Source of the DNA: Octopus sinensis
Taxonomy: Eukaryota
Direction of reading: 5' to 3'
DNA: 64,000 nucleotides
Assembly: GCF_006345805.1 (NCBI RefSeq)
Contig: NC_043021.1
Location: forward strand, 28,334,001-28,398,000
The notes below the pieces were generated by a model. It searched no databases, was not told where the DNA came from, and saw only the letters and a program-made list of their open reading frames with translations. Below, in pieces: positions 8,888 through 59,267 of the stretch (the first letter of the stretch is position 1; every line of letters begins with the position of its first letter). A program made the translations under genes and the position numbers.

Positions 8888-9894
8888 TCTTTATATATAT
8901 AAAACTGAGAATGTGTGTCTGTCTGTGTGTTTCCCTAAAACTTGAGAACTACACAACCAATTTCATTCAAACTTTGCACATGCCTTACTTAGGGTCCATG
9001 TGGTTTCATGGGCAAAAAAAAAGTTCAACTTCTTGCCTAGAGCGAGCCCATAGCAATATCATATCTTCTCTACTATTTCAGTATTACGCGTTAAAAGTGA
9101 AACAAAAACATTTCTCTATTTTATGTCAGATACTTTCACTTTAACAATAAAAAATAATAATAACAATTGAATTATATGTAGTAAGTAATAATTAAAATCA
9201 AACTAAAGTAGAATTTAATCGTAACATTAAAAAAAAATTAAAATAGCAATTGGTATAAAATTACATCAATGACTTGAACTTGAATAAGTGGTTTCACATG
9301 AATGGGAATAAAATTAGCGTGCAGAAATGGAATAGACCAGATGGATAATAAAAAATTAAATTAAAGAAAAAACTATTGTCTATAAAGTATACAATGTAGA
9401 GAAAAAAGAAGATTTGAACACATGGAGGAAAGCACCTTCGAAAAGTGTCTTGGTGCGACTATGAAAGCCATCTAATCAGAGGCGTAAATTCTTCACAATA
9501 GAAGCAAGTTTCAAGTCAAGGGAGTACTCGACTCGAACTTGCAAATTGGAAATATTTTATTTAAATACCTTTATATATAGGACGTAGGACGTCCCGGAAA
9601 AAAATTTAAAATGCCCCTCCCCGAAGTAGAGGTAGGCTGGATTGTAGCCACACTTCTATATAAGAGGGAGGACAAGATACAATTGATCGAAATTACAAGA
9701 GACGGGCTAACAATTCCAGTCTGTTATATATTTTGAGTATTGTTATCACTAGCGATATCAAGATATAACTTTCTATTTTGTATTTTATGTGTAGATGTAG
9801 ATATATAGATGTACATGTAATATGTACACATATATATACACATATATACATGCACTAGCACTATGACCCGGCAACGACGGGTCTTTAATGCTAG
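8888..9894 (+). mobile_element. Non-autonomous Helitron
   Basis: a|TCtttatatatataaaa 5' end, (GTCT/GT) subterminal tract, 3' hairpin gacccg-gcaacga-cgggtc then CTAG|t; inserted at A/T without TSD. Confidence 0.75.
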
Positions 9895-9926
<32 letters not shown>

Positions 9927-10444: not shown

Positions 10445-10469
10445 ATATATATATATATATATATATATA

Positions 10470-10852
10470 CTAGCAGTATCGCCCGGCGTTGCTCAGGTTT
10501 GTAAGGGAAATAACTATAAAGCATTTTTAGAGAGTAATAGCCAAAAAATAGCAAAAAAATGGAAAAAAATGACGGTAAATTTTTTTTTGAGATTTAAAAA
10601 GGTTGGAGTTGCGTCCCCTAGACAGTTTGTGGTTCGTGTTTCTGATTCTCGACCCCATGTCGAATTTATCGATTTTTTCAGAATGGGGGAACTTTTCAAA
10701 ATTTTCGCTGCGGTTAGTTTGAATTATGACATGGGCTATGTGTGTGTCAAGTTTCATCAGAATCGGTTGAAAGCCGTGGTCAGGGTGAGGGTACAAGCAA
10801 ACAGGACACACAGAAACACGCACAGACAAACTGCCGTTTATATAGAGAGAGA
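10470..10852 (-). mobile_element. Non-autonomous Helitron (short)
   Basis: Minus strand starts a|TCtctctctatataaa and ends cctgagcaacgccgggcgatactgCTAG|t; internal caaccgattctgatgaaacttg motif resembles 8955-8980. Confidence 0.8.
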
Positions 10853-13384: not shown

Positions 13385-15480
13385 TCTGTTGTTATCATTC
13401 CTCCTGATCTTCCCCTCTCTAAAGCTGGGCGCTCAATTCTCAGCAGGGGTCCAGTTACTGCATCCAGTAACGAATTTCAGACCCGTGCTGATATTCATAG
13501 CTTTGTGCGCCGTGTCAGGTTATATTCACTATTGCACAACGCTTCCCCTGCATCCAACGAAGAGGATCGCTTCACCAACTTGGGCCGCCGACCATTCCAC
13601 TGAACGCCAGCTCCTGGCCAATTCCAAGCAGTCGGTCATTTTGCAGGCATCTGCCAATGTGTTGTGGACCGGTTTAACTTTCGCAGGGGTCTCCGACATC
13701 TAGAGTTCTCCCCGACCGAACTCTAAACTCTTCGATGTCTCCGACGCTGCAAAGACATTATCATAAAACTACAAGGCTGGAGCCGTGGTGGTGTGGTGCG
13801 CAGACCTCTACAAAGCTGAAGGTCTCAGCCAACTTCAAGACACCTACTTCTATTACTCTCTATCTTCAACCCCCACGCCTAGATACCAAATGACTGTGTC
13901 TTTCACTTTCGATGACCTCAGCTCTTCCTCCCCATCTTCCTCCCACCACCCCCAATCTCACTATACGCACTCCACGCATCCCCACCATTTACTCCCTCTC
14001 CAAAATCCACAAGCCCATGAAACTTGACGGCCCCATCGTCTCCGCCTGTAACTGTCTCGCGGAACTGATATACGTCGACCGTGTCCTTGCCCCCTAGTGG
14101 CTTCCATCCCCGCCCACATCCATGACGCTAACCATGCTCTCCGTCTTTCTCCTTCCCTAATGGACCCGCTAAACTTCTCTTCAATATTAATATCAAAAGT
14201 CTATATACGATGATCCCACACACCAAAGGACTTCGAGCCCTCAAACACTTCCTACACCTTCGACCTAACCCCCAACTTGACACGTCTATACTGCTTCGTA
14301 AGGCCGAACTTATTCTCTCCCTCTACTGCATCTCCTTCGCGGGGAGTTTTACCAACAATTTCGGGAGTGCCCATGGGAACGAGAATGGGCCCCAACTATG
14401 CGAAACTGTTCGTTGGCTACGTTGAAGCCCAAATATTTTCAAGATTCACGGGCCAAATCCCGAACAATATGGTCGTTATATTGATGACCGTATCGGTGCG
14501 ACCTCGCTCTCCTGCAAACAACTAGCCTCCTTCCTCTCTTATTTCCATTCTTTCCATCCTACCCTCGAATTCACCTGCACTATTTCGAACACTTCCACTG
14601 CCTTTCTCGACATTTCGGCCAACATACACAACTTCGCTCTCACTACCTCCGTCCACTACAAGCCTACCCACTCACACTCATACCTCAACTTCTCCTCCTC
14701 CCACCATACCCACGTGAAGCTCTCCATCTCCTACTCCCAATTACTCCGTCTGCGCAGGCTCTGCAGTGACAACCATGACTTTGAGACTCAGTCTCAACTC
14801 ATGGCTCGCTATTTCAGCCTTCGTGGATATACCCTCACGTATATATAACCTCGTGGATATACCAGAGCACGTTCTGTGGACCGTTCCGCTACGCTCCTCT
14901 CCCCGCATACGCCTCAAAGTTGCCCGTCTTCCGTTACCCCTCACTTACCACCCTCCACCCTGTCTTTCCAACGCACTTTTCTCCTAGCCTTCCGGCGACA
15001 CTAGTGCGACCACTCCACCTCACACATCTTCCCCAACCTACGCCTTTCCTCCTTCAAACGAGCCCACAACCTACGTGACCTCCTGGTCCACAATTTCTTC
15101 CCTAACCCCACCTCCCGACCTCGCTCGTTCCTTTGCTTCCGCACCTGCCCCTACATCACCAACATCACCATCTTCACAGGCACCCATCATCGTCCCTATT
15201 ATATCACTGACTCCTTTACCTGCACTTCTAGCAGCATCATTTACTGCATCTCTTCCTGTTTCTTCCCTTCTCTGTACATCGTTCAAGCGGGACGCCGCTT
15301 GGCTGACCGGTTCGCGGAGCACCTCCGAGATATTGGACTCGGCAAGGAAACCCCGGCTTCACACCATTTCCGCTCTACCGGTCATTCATTACAACACCTG
15401 TATTCGGTTTGTCTTTGCACAGAGGCCATCCAGATTCCCACCTTCTCTCTTTGTCCTTTGCGTTACATGGGCTCAACTAC
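13385..15480 (+). pseudogene. Penelope-like RT/GIY-YIG ORF, multiply frameshifted
   Basis: Motifs above are spread over several frames with in-frame stops. Confidence 0.85.
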
Positions 15481-16279
15481 CCTCCCCTCTTCCACTGACT
15501 CCCCTCCTCCCCTCTCTTCATCTGACACATACTTCTCTTCAGTCCTACCCACCTCTCCTCACTTCTTCTCTTCATTCCTATCCACCTACTCCCTTCATTG
15601 GTACTCCCTTACATCCACACCCCAAATATTCTACCCCCACATACCCCACCCTATCCCTACACCTCGACCTCAACACCCACGTCCTCACCCCACCCCCACA
15701 TCTCCACTCCACCCCCACATCTTCACCCCACCCCACATCTTCACCCCACCCCACATCTTCACCCCACGCCCATATCCTCACCCCACCCCAACATCCTTAC
15801 CCCACCTATATCCTGCCCCATCCCTACATCCTCACTCCTACATCTTCACTCACACATCCTCAAGCTAAACCCACACCCCACCCACACATCCCATACTCCC
15901 CACACAGACGACATCCCCTCTCTCCCACTCCCCCACACCACACACCACCACAATACATCACACCACACCACTCCACCCACATTAGCACTGACCACTTTCC
16001 AGCACCCACACCATCATCTACACACCCACACATTAAAGTCGCACACACAAACACGCACACAGCCACACGTCAAAGTCACTAGGTCCTACCACACGCCCAC
16101 ACTTACACACTCTCACATGCACACGCACGCACACCTTCGTTTTGGGATCACCAGTACTTTATTATCTCCCCTTTTCCCTAATTCCTGTGTCCAGCTACCT
16201 TTTCCCAACCACTCGCTATGAGTGATCGCTAAATCCACAAGTTTTTTTTTATTCTATCTCTGTTTATTTCCTTGCATTC

Positions 16280-19370: not shown

Positions 19371-19885
19371 GATGATAAATTTCTTAAGTAAATAGTAGAT
19401 GGATTTGGTATGAACCTTTATTTTGTACAAGGGTCGTTTTGACCCATCCTGCTACTGTCCCTTATTACGGGTGGGACTCCGTTCAACATGTGTTGCATCC
19501 ATTTTGCAGTCTGGGTCTCATCAGGTACATCCATACTTAAAATTATGCCTCGCTAAAGATCCTGAGTTTTGGCTGTCATGTTGTTTATATGCCCGTCTGA
19601 TTAGGGGGGTGAAACATTGCTACAATTTTCAATTACTATTAACTTCCTATAAGAATTGCAAACATTCGTAAATATATAGAAATAGCTATTGATGAAAAAC
19701 AAAAACTATTGGGGAAGTGAATGGATGGACAGGGATGGATTGAGTTAAATTGCGTTTAAGGCATTTATCCACCATCTCTCATTAGGGAATTAGTTAAGAA
19801 CATTTCGGCCAGAATATCTAGATTATCCGCCAACGAAGATATACTCAACAAACATGCACCCTATTATAACGCCTCTCTGGCTACG

Positions 19886-20358
<473 letters not shown>

Positions 20359-21394
20359 ACACTGCTCCGGGAATAACCCCACCAAACACGACACTAACCA
20401 TACGTACAACGTTCAAAACCTGCATAAAATTATCCCAAACCATAAGAATAGGGAAATCAGTTGGTACATGAGATCCAATAATGCGATAGAGAACAGAAGC
20501 AACACTCCAGCCCAGTTAAACAGAGGAAATCACAAAATATCAACACCACCCCAGCATCCGAGAAATAAATACGAAAAATACAAGCATGATATTTTCTAGT
20601 ACAACGCGATCTGGGGCTCGAACATCTCATCCACGATCGGGAAATAGCTCTTCGCAGCTCTCAATCGCTGCTTCCCTAAAAACGTACAGCCAGCTGTACT
20701 ATGTGTATGGTAGTGTAAAACCATCATACGCATCGAATAAGAAGCGTCACGTTCATAGAATTAACAACTGCAAACTAAAGCAGCATGCAGGCAGCATCGA
20801 AAATAGGCCCTCAAAAATTGACGGTGACACATATAACAACTGTGCAAATACCGACCACGTAACGCATCACAGCGTTAAGACTCGAACAATAACACTAACC
20901 AGCAGAGGGAAAACTGCAACTACATTACTAACCAACCAACACATGATAGCCACAACAAATCAAAGAACAACACAAACACACCTAGAAAAATTAAAATAAT
21001 AATAGTGTAACCACGAGCACGAATGTAAATAGAACCGGCAGGAACCGTTCGAAATGTTCTCTGGGTAACCAATGCAAGATATAAAATGTCGTGTACAAGT
21101 GCACCGCAAATAATGGAGGAGATACCTGAGTACATATATGTTCATCGGTTTCAAAAAATAGAAACCACATCGCCAGCTTTCGGAAAATTCTTGGCCGGCA
21201 CGCAACATCATTAGCTGATTTCCGTTGGTGACTCAAGGAAGTGAAGGTAAAATACGACCTGATCTGGTCAATAATTAGACACGCGAGTCCCTACAATACA
21301 CTATCCCGGAAATACCGGCTATATTCCGAGGAATCGCTTTTAATTTTGTTGACAAAGAGCGAACTATTAATTGATTTGCGGAACGACTGTCCTG

Positions 21395-24690: not shown

Positions 24691-24811
24691 TAAATTTTCA
24701 AAATTAATTTCAACAAACTTAGAGTATTTGAACGGAAATACTTTAGCAAAGTGGTTAAAAAAAAAAAAACCTTATAGGCGCAGGAGTGGCTGGGTAAGTA
24801 GCTTGCTTACC

Positions 24812-26814
24812 CGCACATGCGCGTTGGTGTTGCTTATTACAGAGAACCGAGGTGGACGTGAGTGTGTTGGCTCTTGTCCAATACTGAACTGAAAGAAAAC
24901 ATCAGCATAAGATGGAGGTGGATTTGTTTTCGTTTGAGCTGGGTGTAATTTGTCAAATAGTAATTGTTTGTTTGTTGATAAATTTCGCCCAGCTCCGTGG
25001 CAATTCTGCCTGCTGTCGGCGGCTGCTGCTTGTTGTTTTGTTGTATTGGGGGGAAAAGGGGTGGGGGTATATCCTCGCTCGAACTTACTGGATTTTGCCA
25101 TTGAAACTTGTTGGATTACCATTGAACCTACGAAGTTGGCCAGGAGTACCTGTTGGCCATTGATGTTTGCTGTGTGAACCGGTTTTTCTTTTCTCTATCT
25201 TTCTATGTTTCTTTTTGGAACTGTTTTTGCGTTTCTTTTGGATTTTATTTTTTATTCATTTTTTGAACTGACTTATTTATTTCTTTTTGGACTTCTTGTT
25301 AACTTATTTGGACTTTCCTTTTTCTTTTGAACTGACTTTTAACATGGCAAAGGCAAAAAAGTGCCTTACAATGGGAGGTGGTCCCATCTAAGTAATGGAT
25401 TACAAACCGTGAGAGAAGAACGGTGGTACGACGGATCTATTCTAGGTCACGTGATGCCATCGCCCTCCTCGACAAGGGTATCATTAATAAAGAGCTGGCA
25501 AAATATTTGCCAGCCAAAAATTATTATATAACCAGGGGTGTCAAATACGCCACAGCGTGGCTGCTTTTTGACACCCCTGAGGAGGCTTGCACTGTGGCAG
25601 GCTAGCCCTTGGAAGGGGAGGAGATTTTTGCTTGTTCCCACATATCGTGGGAAGAAGGTAATAAAGGCCTGGGTAAGTGGTCTGCCCCCGGGCACCGAAG
25701 CGGGGTGGATTGCAGATGCCATCCGGAGGGGCCTGGGGAATAGTGGGCCCAGGCTCTTAAATATAGAGATAAAGCCTGCGGTCGACTGGGAGCAAAGGGT
25801 ACAAAGGCGACTTTGACCCTATGGACTCCAGTGGCAGCGGGTGAAATGACTTTCCTTGACTTTTTGAAAATGGATGGCTCAAGGTATCCAGTGATACTTG
25901 AGGGTCGCCCCACCCAAGTGTCACTCGTGCCTGGAGTTAGGCCACATTAAGAAGGACTGCCCCGGGGCCGTCCGCTCTCCCATTGCTGGGAGAAACAGAG
26001 GAAGTCGTTGAGGCATCGGCCTCAACGAGAATGAAAAGAAAGGTGAGAAACAATGGTTGCTCACCAACAGAGGCGCAGGTTGCGGGAGACGCGGAAGACC
26101 CCCCCCCCCGAGTGTGTCACCGGAGGCCCCGACTCCCGCAACCGTAAGAAGGAAAAAGAGGAGGAAGAGAAACGGGAGACGGTCGGCGGATGTCGCTGTG
26201 CCGCCGACCGAACCCGATGCTACTCCAGTTGAAGGTGCAGCACTGGAGCGAGAGGTTCTGTCAGTTGGAATTGTACCACTGACAGAGCAGGCTGAGGCCT
26301 CTTCCCGTGAAGAGGAGTTGAAACCCGTCATTTTCTATCTCAGGGGAGGTCCTGTCGAGTAGTGCTTGGACGGTCTTCCAGGCCGAGAACGATTGTCCAG
26401 GCTGGCCTCCGCAGGTGGCTGCAGAGGTCATGAGTCAGAAGGAGCTGTTCCAGGTCTTGGTGACCTGTAATAAGGAAGATTTTACTTTCCTCTTTCCGGG
26501 CCCCTACCTGCAGGCGGCGGGTCATTTGCTTGGGGGCTCCGATGAGGAGGATTGATCTTATAGATTGTGTGTATATTGAACAATTTATTGTATATATTTG
26601 TAAAGGACTGTTAAGTCCAATAATTGTAAAAACTGTCGTTGCTGCTTGAAAAAAAAAACAATGTTTTAGAGAAGCAGAAAATCGGCGGACGTTTTCTGCC
26701 CTCTCTCATCAATATCATCCTTGTTTCATCATTCACCTCATCAATGTACATGTCCAGCCTGCAAGCTACTCTTTGTAATGCCTTTATATCAAATCTTAAT
26801 GAAATAATGAAATA
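24812..26814 (+). mobile_element. ORF1-only non-autonomous non-LTR retroelement (Tx1/L1-type, HAL1-like), element 1
   Basis: Perfect 16-bp TSD at 24796-24811 and 26815-26830; T-rich 5' UTR; decayed gag-like ORF with CCHC knuckle; A-rich tail taatgaaataatgaaata; no EN/RT motifs seen. Confidence 0.85.
25343..26560 (+). pseudogene. ORF1/gag-like protein: RRM-like repeats, CX2CX4HX4C knuckle, basic then acidic tail; frameshifted
   Basis: RIYSRSRDAIALLDKGIINKELAKYLPAKNYYITRGVKYATAWLLFDTPEEA..LVPTYRGKKVIKAWVSGLPPGTEAGWIADAI..YPVILEGRP..CHSCLELGHIKKDC (about 25919-25960)..RRKKRRKR. Confidence 0.8.
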
Positions 26815-27635
26815 AAGTAGCTTGCTTACCAACCACATGGTTCCGGGTTCCGTCTCACTGCGTGGCACCTTGGGCATGTGTCTTCTACTATAACCTCGGG
26901 CCGACCAAAGCCTTGTGAGTGGATTTGATAGACGGAAACTGAAAGAAGCTTTCGTATATATGTATACATATGTATGTGTGTGTATATGTTTGTGTGTCTG
27001 TGTTTGTACCCCCAACATCGCTTGACAACCGATGCTGGTGTGTTTACGTCCCCATAACTTAGCGGTTCGGCAAAAAAGACCTATAGAATAAGAACTAGGC
27101 TTAGAAAGAATAAGGGATGGGGTCGGTCTGCTCAACTAAAGGTTGTGCTCTTGCAAGGCCGCAGTGAAATAACTGAAACAAGTAAAATAGTAAAAGAGTA
27201 TCGAAAATAATGAATTAATAAATGAACGAATGGCTAAATGATAGAATGATAGAATGATAGAATGATAGAATAGACGGAGCTGTCGTTGATTAATGTTATA
27301 AGTTAAACATCTAAATTCAAATGATACAAACTATCAAAATTAGCGAATTAACAAATCGAATAGAATGGATGCTGGAATAAAGAATATGTAACCGAGGATT
27401 CATAGAACAAGTAAATTAAATGACACTTTACACGCTTGTCACCGCAGAGTAACCTTGGAGAAAACGATTCATACCACAACTAAAAATGTATGGAAAAAGA
27501 ACACCCAAAAATCTACACCACGCATCGGAAACTACGAAGAAAGCCAATAGCTTCGATGGAGCTGTTATCATATATAATATATAAGTCGGTGCTCTTTGAC
27601 TGAAACAAGTAAAAGAATATACATACATACATACA

Positions 27636-27693
<58 letters not shown>

Positions 27694-27729
27694 ATGCACA
27701 TATGTATGCATACAGCATGAAGTATAAAT

Positions 27730-27975
27730 GTTTTATTTGTTTCAGTTATTTCACTGCGGCCATGCTGGACCACCGCCGTTACATGAGCAAATAGACCCCC
27801 AGGACTTATTCTTTGTAAGCCTAGTACTTATTCCATCGGTCTAATTTTCTGAACCGTTAAGTTACGGGGATTTAACACCCAGCATCGTTGTCAAGCGATG
27901 TTGGGGGGGACAAACACAGACACACAAACATATACACACACACACATGCATATATATATATATATATATATATGC

Positions 27976-28009
<34 letters not shown>

Positions 28010-28086
28010 ATATAATATATATATATATTATATATGTATATATATATATATATTGCATATATACATATGTATATAATATATATATA

Positions 28087-28161
<75 letters not shown>

Positions 28162-28360
28162 TGCATATATATATATTATATATATATATACATATTACGA
28201 CAGGCTTCTTTCAGTTTCCGTCTACCAAATCCACTCACAAGGCATTGGTCGACCCGGGGCTATAGCAGAAGACACTTGCCCAAGATTACACGCAGTGGGA
28301 CTGAACCCGGAACCATGTGGTTGGTTAGCAAGCTACTTACCACACAGCCACTCCTGCCCC
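27730..28360 (-). mobile_element. SINE family A with expanded internal (TA)n
   Basis: 3' half about 27730-27935 and 5' half about 28195-28360, separated by about 260 bp of TA repeat at the usual internal tract. Confidence 0.85.
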
Positions 28361-28367
28361 TACATAT

Positions 28368-28502
28368 GAACGGCAACGTGAAACTCAGAGTAACAGGTTT
28401 TGTAGAATTTTCTGCTGCTTTAAATAAAGCATATTACTCTACCACTGGTATTTGAGTACTCTTTTTTACCACCTTGTTTCACATTTATGTGCTTACTCCG
28501 GT
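28368..28502 (+). mobile_element. Penelope-type terminal repeat fragment (same family as 32672-32820)
   Basis: gaacggcaacgtgaaactcagagtaaca..taaataaagcatattactctacc..tttatgtgcttactccggta. Confidence 0.75.
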
Positions 28503-28524
28503 ATATATATATATATATACACAC

Positions 28525-28604
<80 letters not shown>

Positions 28605-29015
28605 ACAAATTGAGATAGGGGTTGTAAATGCAACCCTCTATGGGATAACGTATATCCAAATACTGTTAATGAAGTACCCAACAAAGTTAATACATAAATG
28701 TTAATGATTGCGATGCAATCAATTCATTCACTGTATTATATGGCCAAAGGTAAAATGATTTACCACAAATACAAGATAAGAAAATGGAGAAATACATCTA
28801 AATCAAATATCAATTACCAGATAATACTCAATCACATACTTTATTAAACCACCACATAAGAGACAGTAGGGTTAAATATAAAAAGCAGAACAAATCAGTG
28901 TACATAATGGAATGTACATAAAAAAGTGTACATAAAAGAGTAATGTATAATAAGTAGAATATATATATAAAAGAGAATATAAATACAAGTAAATATAAAT
29001 ATAAGTATAAATTAG

Positions 29016-29141
29016 ATCTTACAGCTGTTTCGGCCATGTCGATAATTATGTCTCATTTTACCAATATTAGCCCTTTATGGTTGGTCAATATATAGATATA
29101 AATGAGACATTAACAAAATATCACAAGGCCTCTTCGGAGAT
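29016..29141 (-). ncRNA. Type I hammerhead ribozyme motif with long stem II
   Basis: Minus strand atct-CCGAAGA-ggcc...ggcc-GAAAC-agct-GTA-agat; stems I, II and III all pair. Confidence 0.7.
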
Positions 29142-30441
29142 TATGTAATATAACTCAGTCTACATATATACCCACATGGTGTGGGTGCGTACCCACAATA
29201 CAACATATATATATACATATGAGTGCATATACTCACACTCCTATACATATAAAAATATACATTTACATAATGATATAAATAAATAATATAAATTAGTAAA
29301 CATATATATGTGTTCCACACTCAATGTCTCAGTTTTTCGACTTAATACTGTGATATTAAACATACGCAAATTAATACCTAGATGCAAATATACATAGTCA
29401 ATAGTACATTATATTACTTCATAATAGTTTCTAAAGTGTCATTAAAGTTAGTATCATTATCGTTGTCATTACAATTAATGTTATCATTGTTATCATTCAT
29501 AATTTTATTAATAACTCTTACATTATGATCCAGAGCTGAATATATGTCCGTGTTCCAGTTAATAATTTTCCTTATGGCATAAATACACTATTGGATTTGA
29601 ATTTAAAATTATCATTATCTTCCTCACGGTTGGTCAATTCAGAACCGCCCGACCTCCACCACACCGTACAAGCAAAACATACACATCCACATCTAACCCT
29701 AAACCCATACATCCACACAGAGAATCACACACACATGTACACACGCATGAATACACCCCGACACATCTTTACAATAAATTGGAGAGTGCGTGTCTGTCAT
29801 CGTATGGCTTATAGACATATCAGTACAGGCAGCAGTGTCTAACACTAACACACACACTCACACGCACATCCGCATATACGCATAAATATTAATACACTTT
29901 CCTATACTGTGTCAGGGAACTTTCGCACACACACATATATATATATATATATTTTTTAAATATATATCTGCGCACTCATACGTACAAATAAAACCCATAT
30001 TTATATCTACCCATGAATGAATATTCGCATATACATATATACACATCCAAGTACGCACCTGCGTGCTTATATGTGTAATAAAAACATACATCCGTACCTC
30101 CACCCACGATCATACCTATATGTACAAAAACATATATACTTACACATACACATTTTCACACACCTACAGGGGTTAACCCTACAGTCTCTTATGTGGTGAT
30201 TTAATAAAGTATGTGATTGAGTATTATCTGGTAATTGATATTTGATTTAGATGTATTTCTCCATTTTCTTATCTTGTATATATATATATGTATATACATA
30301 CGACAGGCTTCTTTCAGTTTCTGTCAACCAAATCCACTCACAAGGCTTTGGTCGGCCCGAGGCTATAGTAAAAGACAGTTGCCCAAGGGGCCACGCAGTG
30401 GGACTGAACCCGGAACCATGTGGTTGGGAAGCAAGCTTTTT

Positions 30442-32195
30442 TATTGAGTGAAATTTGCCATGAATTCCTGCCATAGAGGTGACAGCACAAGTTGGGGACA
30501 AAAAAAAATAGAATGGAAAGAGTGAATTAATATAATGAAATATGAAATGAAGCCGTTCGGCTCCACCTCCGAGCGACTTCATTGAACCTGTTCATACCAC
30601 CATTATAAACTAGTTTATAATGTTTTTTTTCTATTATTATTAGCGACGCCTAATTACCACACTTCCGAAGAATGTTTACATTATATTCTTTTAAAATATC
30701 CTGAAAACTTACTTGTTTCGGCATTGAACTGGTTTCGAATTTCTTGACCCACCAATTATAGTCCTGATTTACCTCATGGTCCTTCACTTCCAACATATAT
30801 TCAGGGTCTGCCATTACACAGCGAATGTACTCGGGCACCCTTTCACTCCTGATACAGCCACTTTTATAGCATTATCCCACAAGTCTATCTTTGTCATATA
30901 GTTCTTCGTTTCGCCATTGTACAATATAAGGGCGAGGGTGGGGAAATTTGGGGCTCCTGCGTGCTTGTGTTTGTCTTCATGTCAGGTGCGGCATAATGAG
31001 GGCTGGTGTCTGTAGGAGGTGGTTAGGGGTAAAGTGGGTGTGGGTGTGGGTGCGAGTCGGGTGGGTGTGAGTGGGAATCGGATGGGAGTCGGGTGGGGAT
31101 GGGATGGGGTTCGTCATTTTCAGTGTGTGCCTCTTTTCTCATTGCTTTCTTTCTCCCAGCTGTTTCCCATTCATTGTCCATCTCCTCTTCTTCGACGGTA
31201 GTACTGGTCTTTGTCTGTGGTGCCACTTCACTCTCCCTTTTCACAACCTCCACGGGCAGTGGAGCACCAGCCACTTTCTGACTCTCTTGTCTTTCCTTAG
31301 CTTCCTCAGGTGGTGGAGAACAATCTGCTCTAATGTGGCTTTTTAGGCCACATTTATAGTACCGCGAAATCCTTCCATCCACTCTGACTTTCAGTGTTGC
31401 GTCTCCGACCGTAATAGTCTCTACCATATTTTCGATATCTTCCACGGCAACCTGTACCACCATATCGAGGCTTTGTCCTTGCCAGTTCCTGTGGGATTTT
31501 CTAGTGGCCTGGAGGACCACCACCTTCTCCTCCTTACTTAACAGTATGGCAGCTACCAGCCAGGCTACATCCACTTCAGGGGGGTATGTCTTTTACCCTA
31601 ACACTGGAAGCACATCTCTCACGGTATACAGAGAGAAGCACCACTTCATCAGTTCTCAACTATGTTGCTGAGGGCAGCCTGGCAGTAGCTACCTCCCGAA
31701 ATCGCTCCTCCACTCTCCCAAATTTTCTTCCTCTGGCAAAGTAGGAAATTCCTGGCCAGACTAGTTTAAGCGCCCTTTCTACTTGAGCCGTCGTCAGGAT
31801 TTCAGTCTTCCGAGCTGCTACCGAGTACGTTCTGTAAATTATTTCCTTTAACCCTTCTTTGGGAGGGGAACACCTTTACATTGTACCCCTCCCTTTTAAT
31901 CATTTCCTTGAATTTGCTTGTATCCTCCAGCCACATGTCTTCCCTTCTTTCTTTGTTGCCTCTGCATAATTTTTAGACTCCATCCTCTTCAAACACTCCA
32001 CCATTTCTTCCTCAGATGACACACAGTCTGAAGAAGGATAGTTCAGAAAGTCTGAAGAAGAAGAATTCAAAACTTCACAACTCCTCGCCCGACGCCTCTC
32101 CATTAAACAAGAGGGAAAATGTTGCACCGCCAAGGCAGCAAACAAAAGACGGTGTTACACTCAAAACCAACAATTCGACTGACAAACGCTATACC
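30442..32195 (-). mobile_element. ORF1-only non-autonomous non-LTR retroelement (Tx1/L1-type, HAL1-like), element 2
   Basis: Imperfect about 15-16-bp TSD (gggaagcaagcttttt 30426-30441 / ggtagcaagcttctt 32196-32210); decayed gag-like ORF; 3' end ..cactcaataa; no EN/RT motifs seen. Confidence 0.8.
30650..32103 (-). pseudogene. ORF1/gag-like protein homologous to 25343-26560; frameshifted
   Basis: NYAEATKK..YRTYSVAARKTEILTTAQVERALKLVWPGISYFARGRKFGRVEERF..VLLSVYRERCASSVRVKDIP(fs)PEVDVAWLVAAI..LKVRVDGRISRYYKCGLKSHIRADC..EWETAGRKK. Confidence 0.8.
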
Positions 32196-32463
32196 GGTAG
32201 CAAGCTTCTTAGCACACAGCCACTCTTGCGCTTATATATGTATGTGTATATATATATACACACATTTATAAATGCATGTGTGCTAATTTACGTGCATACC
32301 TCTCCTGTTATGTAACTATAAATATTCATATGTATATAAGTATATGTGTACATATATATATATATACTAATACAATTGTTTGTTTGTATTCCACCTGCCT
32401 TCGTCTTTTGTTTATTTCCGTAAACCTGCCTTCGTCTTTTGTCTATTTTCATAAAGCTTCCCG

Positions 32464-36133: not shown

Positions 36134-39100
36134 TAAATCCTTAAATCCTTAAAAATGTTTTAGCCCGAAGGCCGCGGCCATGCTGGGGCACCACCGCTGA
36201 ATGAGCTACACTAATTTGTGAATCCACCTCTGATACGTGGCACTTGATCAACAAGGGAGTTCGATGCTGCTGCCCGCATCCGCGTCTCCTGTCGTGAGGT
36301 AGGTTCATATGGGACTCCCGACAAGAAGAGATCCAGTTTAGTTTTAAAGAAACCCACATCCACACCATGTAAGTCTCTCAGGCATTTAGGGAGGATGTTA
36401 AAGAGCTGTGGTCCTCTGAAACCCAAGCTGTTGCAGTATCTGGACCTGTATTTTGATGGTGATGTTGGAATCCTTGGCACCATGCAGTGGTGCCCCGTTC
36501 TGCGGTTGGAGTAACTTTGAATGCCAAAGTTTGGGACAAGACCCTCCAGGATTTTCCAGATGTATATCACCACATATCTCTCCCGCCTCCGCTCTAGGGA
36601 GAAGAGGTTTAATACCTTCAGTCTTTCCCAGTAGCTGATATTTTGCATTGAGACGATTTTCTTTGTGTAGCTTCTCTGAATTGCTTCGAGTTCTGTTGTT
36701 AGTTTTATATTGTGTGGTGACCAAAGTTGGGAGCAGTAGTCCAAGCGGCTGAGGACGAATGTTTTCCATAGGACCATCAGTGTCTCCTTCTCTCTTGTTC
36801 TGAAAGTTCGGAGAATCCATCCAGCTAGCTGTCTGCATTTTATCACCAGATTAGCAATATGCATTTGGAAAGATGCATCATTGCTCATGTCAATGCCCAG
36901 GTCACGCACTGATTTTGACTCAGGGATTGCAATTCTTCCTGGGCCAGTGTATCCAGTCTTCACGTCATTTACCTTTGTGTGCCAGTAACGCAGGGCCTGG
37001 AACTTACCTGCATTAAACTGCATGTTGTTGTCCTAAGCCCACCTGTATATTGTGTCCAGCTCATGTTGCAGATGCGCAATATTTTCAGGGTTTTGTATTG
37101 CGTGGGAGACTTTTGTGTCATCTGCATAGCTAGCAAGGGTGGTCATCGTAGCAACTGAAGGCATGTCTGAAAGGGCCACTATGAACATCAGTGGCCCCAA
37201 GACAGTGCCCTGTGGGACACCGCTTGTTATTTCCGTTTCCTTGGAGGTGGCTCTATTGCTCACAACTACCTGTTTTCTGTCTTTTAGGAAGTTGTGCAGC
37301 CACTCTCCAAGTTTCCCGCCTATGCCGAGACCACGCAGTTTGTGACAGATCATACCATGGTCGACTTTATCAAAGGCTTTTGCAATGTCGAGATATATTA
37401 CATCCACATTTGAGCCATTTAGTAGCTGTTTCAACACCCAGTCATAGTGTTGCAGGAGCTGTGTTAGGCAGCCTCTACCTGGTCGAAATCCATGTTGGGT
37501 GTCAGACAGCAACTCATTTTCTTCAAGGAACATGATTAGTTTCTTACGGACTATTCGTTCCATGACTTTGCTGATGTGTGAGGTCAGAGAGATAGGCCTA
37601 TAATTTTTAGCATCTGCTCTGCTACCTCCCTTATGGGTAGGGCATATTACCCCCTCTTTCAATTTGACTGGGAGCTTACCACATGCAAGAAAGCTCTGAA
37701 AAAGAATCTGTAGCGGTTTTGCAAGGGCTCGTTTGCACGATTTGAGAAGGATCGCTGGGAATCCATCAGGTCCAGCAGCTGAGTTTGTGTCAATCTCATC
37801 AATGGCTAGTGTGATATCATCATCTTCGATGTTGATGTACTCAATTTTTGTCTCTTTGGCCGCAGGTAAAGTGGCAAAGAATTCTTCTGGGTTGTTTACT
37901 TGCCTGTGTCCTAGAGATGTAGTAAACACACTTTGGAACTGTTCGTTCAGTATTTCACTTATCCTCGTGGGATTTCCTGTGAGAGAGCCATCTTTTTGAA
38001 AGAGAGGTCCTATTCTCTGGTGCACTGTGGCTGTCTCTTTGGCAAACTTAAAGAAAGCTTTAGGGTTTGATTTTCTATTTTCTATTACCCAAGCTTCTTT
38101 ATCTGCTCTCTCCTTTTCATGGGACTGATGTAGACTTTTCTCAGTTTCCATTAGCATTCTTTCGAGCCGAGACTTCTCACCACTTTTGGTGTGCTTGCTC
38201 AGGCGGTTTGCAATCCTTGTCCGTTGTCTCATAAGAATCCTCCTTTCTCTAGGGATCCTGTTTTTGTTCTTGTGTGTGCTGGCCCTGCACACTGGGACAT
38301 ATTTGTCACATATGGCTTGTATTATGGACATGAAGTGTTTGTGTTTCATGTTTATGTCCGGTGTGGAGAGACATTCAGGCCAATCCTGTTTGAGGATATC
38401 TTTCTCAATCAACTTCCAGTTGGCTTTATGAAAGTTTAAGTTGGAGAGATGGTGGGTGCTTCGTATAGGCTGTGAGCCTACGGGGGCTTTTGTTCCATAC
38501 ATAGACAACTCTATTATGTTGTGATCCGAGATCATTGTCGGCATCGCATTAACATTATGGATAATATCCATATTGTTTGTGAAGCAGAGATCCAGTATAT
38601 TATCTGCCCTTGTTGGTTGCAGAACTATTTGCTCCATGAAAGAGGCATTTGTGAGATGGAGCAGGGACTCCACCTGTGCCTGCTGATGGTGTGTCATCCC
38701 TGGGAGCATCTGCCCCACCAGGCCATTCCACATTGGGGAGGTTAAAATCACCCATGAAGAATACACTGTTGTGCTGTTCAAGGTTGGTGAGGACTTCTCC
38801 TATTTTTGTTAGGCAGTCTTCAAACATGCCTGAGTGTTTTGGGGCATCTGGTGGGCGATATGTAGTGCATATGACGATATTCAGTTGCCTTATGTGTACA
38901 ATTTGAGTTTCACATACTGAGTTTGAATATGACAGCAGGACCTGGGGCGTGAGGTCATCTCGGATGTACATTGCAATTCCACCATGGCTCCTCCCTTTTC
39001 TATCTGTGCGTATGACTGCATATTGCGGCATGTGTATTTCTGCATCACCTATATCGGGTCCAAGATGCGTTTCTGTGAGTGCCATGCATATAGCTTGATT

Positions 39101-39180
39101 GCATGTCACAAGGTCTCTCAGGAATGAAATTTTTTTTTACAGTTTCCGCGCAGCAGCCCTCCTACATTCAGTAGAAAGAA
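36134..39180 (-). mobile_element. CR1-group LINE, 5'-truncated at the start of ORF2 (APE endonuclease + reverse transcriptase), inserted in (TA)n
   Basis: APE motifs ALTETH, GGIAMY, YRPP, GDFNLP, NILDL, ISDH; RT motifs AAGPDG, NYRPISLTS, QHGFRPGR, YLDIAKAFDKVDH, GVPQGTVLGP, YADD, DLG; short 3' UTR with stem-loop and 8-bp terminal repeat (TTTAAGGA)2. Confidence 0.95.
36211..39175 (-). pseudogene. LINE ORF2 (EN-RT) with one in-frame TAG (37033-37035), a frameshift near 38720 and another near 39130
   Basis: ORF-track segments 38600-39109, 37033-38781 and 36211-37023 join into one EN-RT protein. Confidence 0.9.
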
Positions 39181-41866: not shown

Positions 41867-42252
41867 AAATGAAAGAATGGAGTTAAAGGACGAATTAACA
41901 AAATTCCTTTATTTTATTTTCGACATATGTTTCGAAGGCTACATATTCCTAATTTCGAAGGAATAAGGGGTGCATTATGCCGCCTTCTCATCAGGAAAAA
42001 CAAGGAACTTATGTCAGCATCAAGATGCACAAAAACTTTTAGATGGCTGCCCACACGGAGCCTATAGCGATATTATCTAAAAGTTTTTGTGCATCTTGAT
42101 GCTGACATAAGTTCCTTGTTTTTCCAGATGAGAAGGCGGCACAATGCACCCCTTATTCCTTCGAAATTAGGAATATGTAGCCTTCGAAACATATGTCGAA
42201 AATAAAATAAAGGAATTTTGTTAATTCGTCGTTCAACTCCATTCTTTCATTT
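41867..42252. mobile_element. Near-perfect palindrome (about 178-bp arms, 30-nt spacer) with HHR in each arm
   Basis: Minus arm ttttc-CTGATGA-gaaggc...gccttc-GAAAC-atat-GTC-gaaaa (41917-41999); plus arm has CAGATGA. Confidence 0.85.
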
Positions 42253-50814: not shown

Positions 50815-50939
50815 GTAGCTGTACGGTAAGAAGCTTAACTCCCAACCACATCGTTCCAGGTTCAGTCCCCTGCCTGGCACCTGGTGCAAGTCTCTTCTAC
50901 TAAAGCCTCTGCCCATCATAGGAAACCCGGAAACCCGTC

Positions 50940-58302: not shown

Positions 58303-58722
58303 TGATGATGATGATGATGATGATAATAATGATGATGATGATAATAATGATAATAATAATAATAATGATGATGATGATAATAATGATAATAATAATGATG
58401 ATGATGATGATGATGATGATGATGGTGATGGTGGTGGTGGTGGTGGTGGTGGTGGTGGTGGTGGTTGTGGTGGTGGTGGCGATGATGATGATGATGATGG
58501 TGATGGTGATGGTGGTGGTGATGGTGGTGGTGGTGATGGTGGTGGTGATGGTGGTGGTGATGGTGGTGGTGGTGATGGTGGTGGTGGTGTGGTGGTGGTG
58601 GTGGTGGTGGTGGTGGTGGTGATGATGATGATGATGATGGTGATGGTGATGGTGGTGGTGATGGTGGTGGTGGTGGTTGTGGTGGTGGTGGTGGTGGCGA
58701 TGATGATGATGATGATGATGAT
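58273..58722. repeat. Compound (ATA)n/(ATG)n/(GTG)n microsatellite
   Basis: Directly visible. Confidence 0.95.
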
Positions 58723-59267
58723 AATTCAAACTGACAGAAAGATAGATGCAAATAGGCCAGACATCATATTGAAAGACTTCAAACAAAGAACATGCCTCCT
58801 CATTGATATGACTGTCCCAATCGATATAAACGTATCTGTCAAGACCTACCAGAAACTGGGCAAATATAAAGATCTTGAAATAGAAATCAGCAAAATGTGG
58901 AACCTGAAGACTAAAACAATACCAGTTGTCATAGGTGCCCTGGGAATGATAGCAAAAGGGGCTGATTGCTACCTAACTCAGATACCAGGAAACCGAAAAA
59001 TGGCAGAAATTCAAAAGATAGTGCTCATGGGAACTGCTCATATCCTACGCAAAATACTTTCTATGTAATCTCAAGTTTTAAAACAAACATAAATTTGTTT
59101 TTTTTTTTACATTCCCTAGTACAACACTAAATACAAAACCAAATATATGGCACACTAAGCATAACAACATCACGAACTTCCAACCTGTTGTCTCTTGAGG
59201 TCTCTGGGTAAGACATGGAGCCAACTTGTACAGATATAAAGCAAAAGTCAAACATAGAATAATAATG

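Follow-up and report, generated by a model that had tools for sequence, protein, structure and literature searches.

We analysed a 64,000-nucleotide stretch of the Octopus sinensis genome (contig NC_043021.1, positions 28,334,001 to 28,398,000; hereafter the window, with coordinates counted from its first letter), and in it a minus-strand insert called element 2. Element 2 is a real nested insertion, which interrupts a repeat resembling a short interspersed element (SINE). It is probably a dead, non-autonomous non-LTR retrotransposon (LTR, long terminal repeat) of the HAL1-like kind, carrying only open reading frame (ORF) 1 and moved by a sequence-preferring, probably Tx1-type partner. A second insert in the window, element 1, sits at nearly the same place in another copy of the same repeat, and the two appear from their sequences to be homologous yet to represent separate families.

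Element 2 interrupts a SINE-like repeat

The window is rich in repeats, microsatellites among them, and blastn finds in it many copies of a host repeat with a unit of about 400 bp. We take this repeat to be a SINE on the strength of its size, its copy number and its A-box-like and B-box-like motifs. No folding signal was found in the repeat (fold z-scores -0.37 to 0.35). Its head region is kept in nine copies, two of which are split by inserts, namely elements 1 and 2. The tRNA-derived SINEs of Octopus include the OK/OR families. OR2 is one of those named (PMC4758252).

The insert, its ends and its host repeat are laid out as follows.

32199..32234, minus strand: 5' part of the host SINE-like repeat, a head with the A-box-like motif, closed by the upstream copy of the duplication (found with blastn and by aligning intact copies)
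32199..32207, minus strand: target-site duplication, upstream copy (9 bp exact, longest common substring)
32104..32198, minus strand: putative 5' untranslated region of about 95 nt, placed by the first ATG of the NYAEATK frame at 32103
30601..30622, no strand assigned: perfect palindrome of 22 bp, located in the 3' part of element 2; no other palindrome in the insert has arms of at least 6
30439..30445, minus strand: 3' end of element 2, with an AATAAA signal and a very short A tail (read from the sequence)
30430..30438, minus strand: target-site duplication, downstream copy (9 bp exact, longest common substring)
30282..30429, minus strand: 3' part of the host repeat, with the B-box-like motif and the body, ending at a TA tract (89% identity over 146 nt)

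Element 2 spans 1,760 bp (32198-30439), in agreement with the minus-strand insert of about 1.75 kb described in a first-pass annotation of this DNA. When it is removed together with one duplication copy, the two host parts (32234-32199 and 30429-30282) rejoin without gaps into a 166-nt repeat, 152 positions of which are identical to the intact copy at 1668. Four intact copies were compared in all: two others gave 147/166 each, and the fourth gave 142/166 with 4 gap positions. The longest exact duplication around the insert is 9 bp (32207-32199 and 30438-30430), which grows to 12 bp if one mismatch is allowed. The imperfect duplication reported earlier does exist, but its full length of 15-16 bp requires two mismatches and a 1-nt gap. 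Thus element 2 has a duplication of its own (9 bp) and a polyadenylated 3' end (AATAAA with a minimal A tail), as HAL1-like elements have. At the palindrome an RNA hairpin is possible.

The host repeat of element 2 is without the further 3' portion present in other copies, and it shares A and TCCC variants with the copy at 50815. It plausibly belongs to a SINE subfamily other than that of the host of element 1, an assignment based on few sites.

The protein of element 2 is a decayed ORF1

The coding features of the core are these.

31146..32103, minus strand: decayed ORF1 with an N-terminal motif, two RRM-like domains (about 31870-31380), one knuckle, an acidic stretch and a basic motif
31951..31971, minus strand: NYAEATK motif (of 6 long relatives examined, 4 have one resembling it)
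31320..31361, minus strand: single CCHC knuckle YYKCGLKSHIRADC, with Tyr replacing the first Cys
31146..31169, minus strand: WETAGRKK motif (pattern W-x2-(V/A/I)..KK in 10 of the 25 relatives with at least 60 residues after the knuckle)

The three motifs quoted by the first-pass annotation were all found, in two frames: NYAEATK lies in a frame different from that of the YYKCGLKSHIRADC knuckle and WETAGRKK. According to frameshift-aware alignment the frame is broken by three frameshifts (near 31952, 31870 and 31581), some of which may be assembly artefacts, and by one stop (near 31660); by the same method 89 of 254 residues were identical to those of the relative P0016. Pfam assigned no family to the 189-aa stop-free core ORF. 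A word-based search for longer homologous proteins returned none of 156 candidates, a false negative given that an exhaustive search with the core found 154 relatives at E<=0.001. Close relatives among these proteins, known without DNA context, are 52-66% identical to element 2, the best reaching 61-66%.

Sixty relatives were aligned, and 31 entered a tree of 34 rows. A profile built from the 60 matches element 2 in two collinear pieces, with scores of 93.7 and 144.5 bits. Of the seven matches found by searching with the profile, six bear the names of Octopus vulgaris or O. sinensis proteins. (One ORF1 relative is called 'EPM2A-interacting 1-like' by NCBI, probably a misannotation.) For the motif comparisons and the comparison with element 1, eight of 150 matches were excluded, six of them multi-stretch knuckle matches and two long chimeric models, which left 142. 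The first knuckle position, Tyr in element 2, is Cys in 49 of the 56 relatives that have the rest of the pattern, and none of the 49 relatives whose knuckle is intact has more than one. Among the 60 aligned relatives zf-CCHC is matched by 20 and Transposase_22 by none.

The AlphaFold model of P0016 has a predicted local distance difference test (pLDDT) score of 76.7 overall; the score exceeds 85 for most of residues 90-280, and within 100-280 it is mostly higher than 90. The model matches 82 PDB chains at E<=0.001, those listed being tandem-RRM proteins, and in a wide fold search several ferredoxin-like folds tied (best Z 8.5, root mean square deviation 2.6 over 79 residues). L1 ORF1p was not among the fold matches listed, though the two may yet be related. 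Searching the PDB sequences with the family profile returned only knuckle and low-complexity matches, and the families zf-CCHC, RRM_1 or ZCCHC3 RBD occur in its Atlas neighbours (0.90-0.93).

A type I ORF1 has at least one RRM directly upstream of a CCHC knuckle. P0016 has tandem RRMs in its model and element 2 is collinear with it, and on this modelled architecture the element 2 protein is a type I non-LTR ORF1 with two predicted RRMs followed by one knuckle, degenerate in element 2. The ORF1 of HAL1 and of mammalian L1 is type II. Such an ORF1 consists of a coiled coil, one RRM and a C-terminal domain (Transposase_22); the P0016 model shows two RRM-like domains and a knuckle, which fits type I. 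To call the protein typical of L1/Tx1 ORF1, as had been done, was therefore an overstatement: type I does occur in Tx1, but the mammalian L1 type is a different one and many clades share type I. The RRM/CCHC combination reported for Tx1 ORF1, of which variants are known (PMC5203782), is present in element 2 and is not unique to Tx1, type I proteins being reported also for I, Jockey, R1, Tad1, plant L1, L2 and CR1 elements (PMC4120745).

The 3' part carries no detectable ORF2

Downstream of the core two further features were recognized.

30950..31120, minus strand: His/Pro-rich low-complexity tract, 58% GC, in which the frame stops at 31023-31025
30650..30981, minus strand: two overlapping coding-like pieces (30981-30814 and 30871-30650), possibly a C-terminal domain of ORF1

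None of six pieces of the 3' part matched an endonuclease or a reverse transcriptase (RT), although short decayed remnants of ORF2 could escape such a search; Pfam does detect both domains in an unrelated long interspersed element (LINE) at 36211-39136. The two domains were likewise absent from all 14 long relatives scanned, but this counts for little, as the frames of ORF1 and ORF2 are distinct. Element 2 thus has the build of a HAL1-like element, ORF1 present and ORF2 absent, and the description of it as ORF1-only agrees with what was found. That it is instead a two-ORF Tx1-like element whose ORF2 was deleted in this copy seems to us rather improbable. Such a deletion would fit the existence of a single copy and the frame break and low-complexity tract between the core ORF and the 3' part; it is opposed by the equally short build of element 1 (2,003 bp), by the absence of any endonuclease or RT remnant in the pieces searched and, weakly, by the 14 relatives. 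This alternative also overlaps with the reading of element 2 as an ORF1-only element.

The piece 30656-30868 (minus strand) offers a side lead. Its Atlas features are similar to those of viral clusters (0.95/0.94/0.94, 157-167 shared features), two of which carry Pox_D5 in 18% and 50% of their members, and its model has the order helix-strand-helix-helix-strand at pLDDT 56. There was no Pfam match, the best PDB sequence E was 0.78, phage tblastn gave E 0.3-1, the homologue search accepted 0 of 2 candidates, the one PHROG hit is of unknown function (E 0.012), and the fold search yielded no match (best Z 2.3). Nor is the piece similar to the tails of the 14 relatives or of element 1. The winged-helix (Pox_D5-type) resemblance is a lead only, confirmed by no sequence or fold search. 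Element 1 has a coding-like piece as well (26312-26552, plus strand), beyond its low-complexity linker, with no Pfam or PHROG match; it is unrelated to the 3' piece of element 2, 683 of 1000 shuffles scoring as well.

Element 1 is a separate insertion of a different family

Two other inserts or fragments with the same type of protein lie in the window.

24812..26814, plus strand: element 1, an insert of 2,003 bp whose decayed ORF1 is homologous to that of element 2, lying in the same host repeat and likewise oriented relative to it
9277..9721, plus strand: third ORF1 relative, more decayed, ending ahead of the knuckle, within about 8890-9895

Element 1 is flanked by an exact 16-bp duplication (24796-24811 and 26815-26830) and, like element 2, closes with AATAAA and hardly any A tail; the final A's of element 1 overlap the target. 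Between elements 1 and 2 neither blastn nor tblastn found anything significant inside the inserts, and their homology appears only via relatives or after read-through of the breaks. Among the 142 relatives 16 match element 1 and 137 match element 2, and the ORF1 profile hits element 1 in collinear pieces (E 1e-4 to 5e-4). The read-through proteins, with X at the breaks, are identical at 36 of 173 positions (about 21%). Their alignment scores 86 against a shuffled mean of 29.7, and 70 when the knuckle is left out; none of 1000 shuffles did as well in either case. The pairwise alignment that had been proposed as a check thus revealed homology. In the tree element 2 falls into a supported group (97/94) with five database proteins and does not group with element 1. 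Taken together, the 21% identity, the missing nucleotide match and the separation in the tree bear out the earlier view that the two belong to different families.

The two inserts are 3.6 kb apart, in opposite orientation in the window and both in sense relative to the repeat head. Their proximity would fit a common origin, either as a composite of SINE plus insert or by local duplication, and the annotation of some relatives as Octopus genes, together with the ZCCHC3-like cluster among the Atlas neighbours, would fit a processed copy of a host RRM-CCHC gene. We regard these explanations as highly improbable. The host flanks are 91% identical and the inserts share no nucleotide match, from which it follows that there were two independent insertions; with only 21% residue identity besides, a single origin of both inserts was rejected. 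As to a retrogene, the ORF1 family comprises no fewer than 154 clusters with identities under 50%, most of them fragments, and forms a radiation that the tree leaves largely unresolved; this fits mobile elements. The two elements cluster within 24796-32210, with an uninterrupted SINE copy (28362-28182) between them.

The first-pass annotation had considered element 2 to be the older of the two because of its mismatched duplication and decayed ORF. This was not upheld: the mismatches vanish if the duplication is 9 bp, each ORF core has three frameshifts and one stop, and the host repeat bodies are equally diverged (89-93% vs 90-94%). An age order built on these features was rejected, since neither lesions nor host divergence places one element before the other.

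The third relative lies in a repeat that looks Helitron-like, having a terminal hairpin and a CTAG end; the end of this repeat resembles 10445-10487. The relative is a truncated piece, either a captured fragment or an insertion into the Helitron-like repeat. Other families of the ORF1 group may have other targets or none.

The two inserts share nearly the same site in the repeat

The 9-bp duplication of element 2 falls inside the 16-bp stretch of element 1. Depending on how the ends are drawn, the 3' junction of element 2 is the same as that of element 1 or 3 nt inside it, and the 5' junctions either coincide or that of element 2 falls short by 4 nt. The identical SINE position claimed previously therefore stands as to the repeat, the orientation and the near-same site, but it is approximate, since the junctions differ by 0-4 nt.

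On both strands the window contains 2811 TAA, 385 TAAG and 23 TAAG[A/T]AG sites, and 8 of these 23 are SINE heads. Under a generic preference the chance that an insert hits a SINE head is then about 0.3% (9/2811, for TAA) to about 2% (8/385, for TAAG), and under the 7-nt motif about 35%, figures that are simple arithmetic and are uncorrected for a window picked on account of this very coincidence. It is very unlikely that two unrelated insertions with a loose TAA preference met the same repeat position by chance. The abundance of the SINE, the selection of the window after the fact and the third relative located elsewhere speak for chance; against it, once the first insert is taken as given, the second had a probability of about 0.3-2%.

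More has to be conceded to a short motif. A partner endonuclease could prefer nothing beyond a sequence such as TAAG[A/T]AG, or aim at real tRNA genes, the SINE being merely the commonest carrier of the motif. With 8 of 23 motif sites in SINE heads, two SINE hits would be expected about 12% of the time; the junctions may differ by 3-4 nt, and tRNA-gene-targeting retrotransposons are known (PMC4640811). Both copies have a further matching target stretch and the orientation in common, however, and the 15 motif sites outside SINEs are unoccupied in the window, so that we consider this explanation unlikely. Its difference from a partner preferring the SINE site is one of degree, not of mechanism. 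These observations show that loose chance is unlikely, and that a short motif preference could explain much. Two of the three ORF1-type relatives in the window are within the SINE; they are of different families with one copy each, to be set beside the measure in PMC4494074, by which more than 20% of copies have the same repeat at their flanks.

Several points weigh against an ORF1-only element moved by a SINE-preferring Tx1-type partner. The case has no more than two insertions, separated by 3.6 kb, in a window selected for their coincidence, and it takes three assumed changes to give their duplications (9-12 vs 16 bp) one length. Outside the SINE, and in another supported group of the tree, is the third relative (about 9280-9720). 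Both read-throughs were guided by relatives, which may inflate the alignment score, and element 1 is a long branch to which the tree gives no settled position. Two long relatives are pieces of other gene models, P0068 and P0084, the one within a Helitron Rep/PIF1 gene model and the other at the start of a GRF/SNF2 gene model. No RT links the family of element 2 to Tx1, type I ORF1 being found in many clades, and one copy cannot separate an ORF1-only family from a later internal deletion. Finally, the tRNA origin of the SINE head is a presumption, and neither ARAGORN nor Rfam found a tRNA in the repeat.

Other elements in the window

The unrelated LINE ORF2 at 36211-39136 (minus strand), with endonuclease and RT domains (RVT_1, E 4.6e-26), is broken by a stop and a frameshift. 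At 41867-42252 there is an inverted repeat resembling a miniature inverted-repeat transposable element, with 178-nt arms, 98% complementary and 30 nt apart. Decayed retroelement-like coding pieces were judged by eye from the ORF list at 14214-15868, 19760-21000 and 58640-59068 (all plus strand); for two of the three, Pfam gave no meaningful match.

Discussion

Taking the evidence together, we favour the view that element 2 was an ORF1-only rider on the machinery of another element. Its RNA would have been transcribed and then packaged by its own ORF1, and an autonomous partner, in all likelihood of the Tx1 type, would have lent its ORF2 for insertion by target-primed reverse transcription. The partner endonuclease would cut at or just inside T/AAG(A/T)AG (slash, cut), between the A-box-like and B-box-like motifs of the SINE. 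ORF1-only elements have no endonuclease, and so the shared site should come from a shared or related partner and should not be a property of each family. By parting the two promoter boxes by 1.8 kb the insertion should silence the SINE copy. Tx1 appears to be the most likely partner clade, because its endonucleases can be sequence-specific, because its transposon targets are passed on to non-autonomous riders and because O. vulgaris has many L1-Tx1 families. The Tx1L endonuclease is sequence-specific (PMC1950540), and 80 L1-Tx1 families, 13 of them recently active, are reported for O. vulgaris (PMC13282606).

ORF1-only elements are known from HAL1 (half-L1; PMC5753468), which element 2 resembles in being non-autonomous, in having ORF1 only, a polyadenylated end and a target-site duplication, and in needing the ORF2 of a partner (PMC5753468). 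HAL1 differs in being derived from mammalian L1, whereas element 2 is an octopus element with a predicted type I ORF1 of two RRMs and one knuckle, and is apparently site-preferring. Descent from mammalian L1 is not indicated, the named relatives being Octopus proteins with type I architecture.

Insertion at a fixed position of another multicopy element is what the target-specific Tx1 clade does, with Tx1L in Tx1D, Tx1-Mar in Mariner-N4, Keno in U2, and Kibi and Koshi (PMC4494074). The targets listed there are DNA transposons, LTR elements, small nuclear RNA and 5S genes, satellites and microsatellites, with no SINE among them, and the families have an ORF2 (PMC4494074). SINEU-3, carried by Tx1-Mar, is an example of a non-autonomous element that shows the target choice of its partner (PMC4494074), but it is short and non-coding, whereas element 2 encodes its own ORF1. 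In having entered what may be a polymerase III unit, at or near its A box, element 2 recalls the Dada DNA transposons and the NeSL/LIN elements in tRNA genes; those depend on other enzymes, and their targets are genes, not SINEs (PMC3706591, PMC4640811). The word 'SINE' is absent from the main text of either Dada paper. In its way of working, element 2 would resemble a target-specific Tx1 rider, and it is itself a candidate for Tx1 membership only.

No SINE-targeting or ORF1-only Tx1-like element of octopus was found in the literature searched, octopus repeat papers included, although Repbase, Dfam or subscription papers could already describe such families. ORF1-only elements and the nesting of Tx1 in other transposons are known; what appears to be new here is the SINE target, resting on two copies. 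As a more far-reaching and tentative possibility, octopus may harbour a wide radiation of ORF1-only elements, at least two of them about 21% alike, all inserting between the promoter boxes of one of its commonest SINEs, where the target would be safe and the copies silenced, and maybe with an added winged-helix domain behind ORF1.

If the preference were not upheld genome-wide, element 2 would be an ordinary nested insertion. If it holds, SINE heads would join the multicopy targets of site-specific retrotransposons and ORF1-only elements would join the Tx1-like world. With SINEs making up 11.6% of the O. vulgaris genome (PMC13282606), there would be almost no limit to the target, and a SINE promoter should be lost with each hit, a parasite on a parasite with both non-autonomous. 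It would also point to an undescribed sequence-specific endonuclease in octopus.

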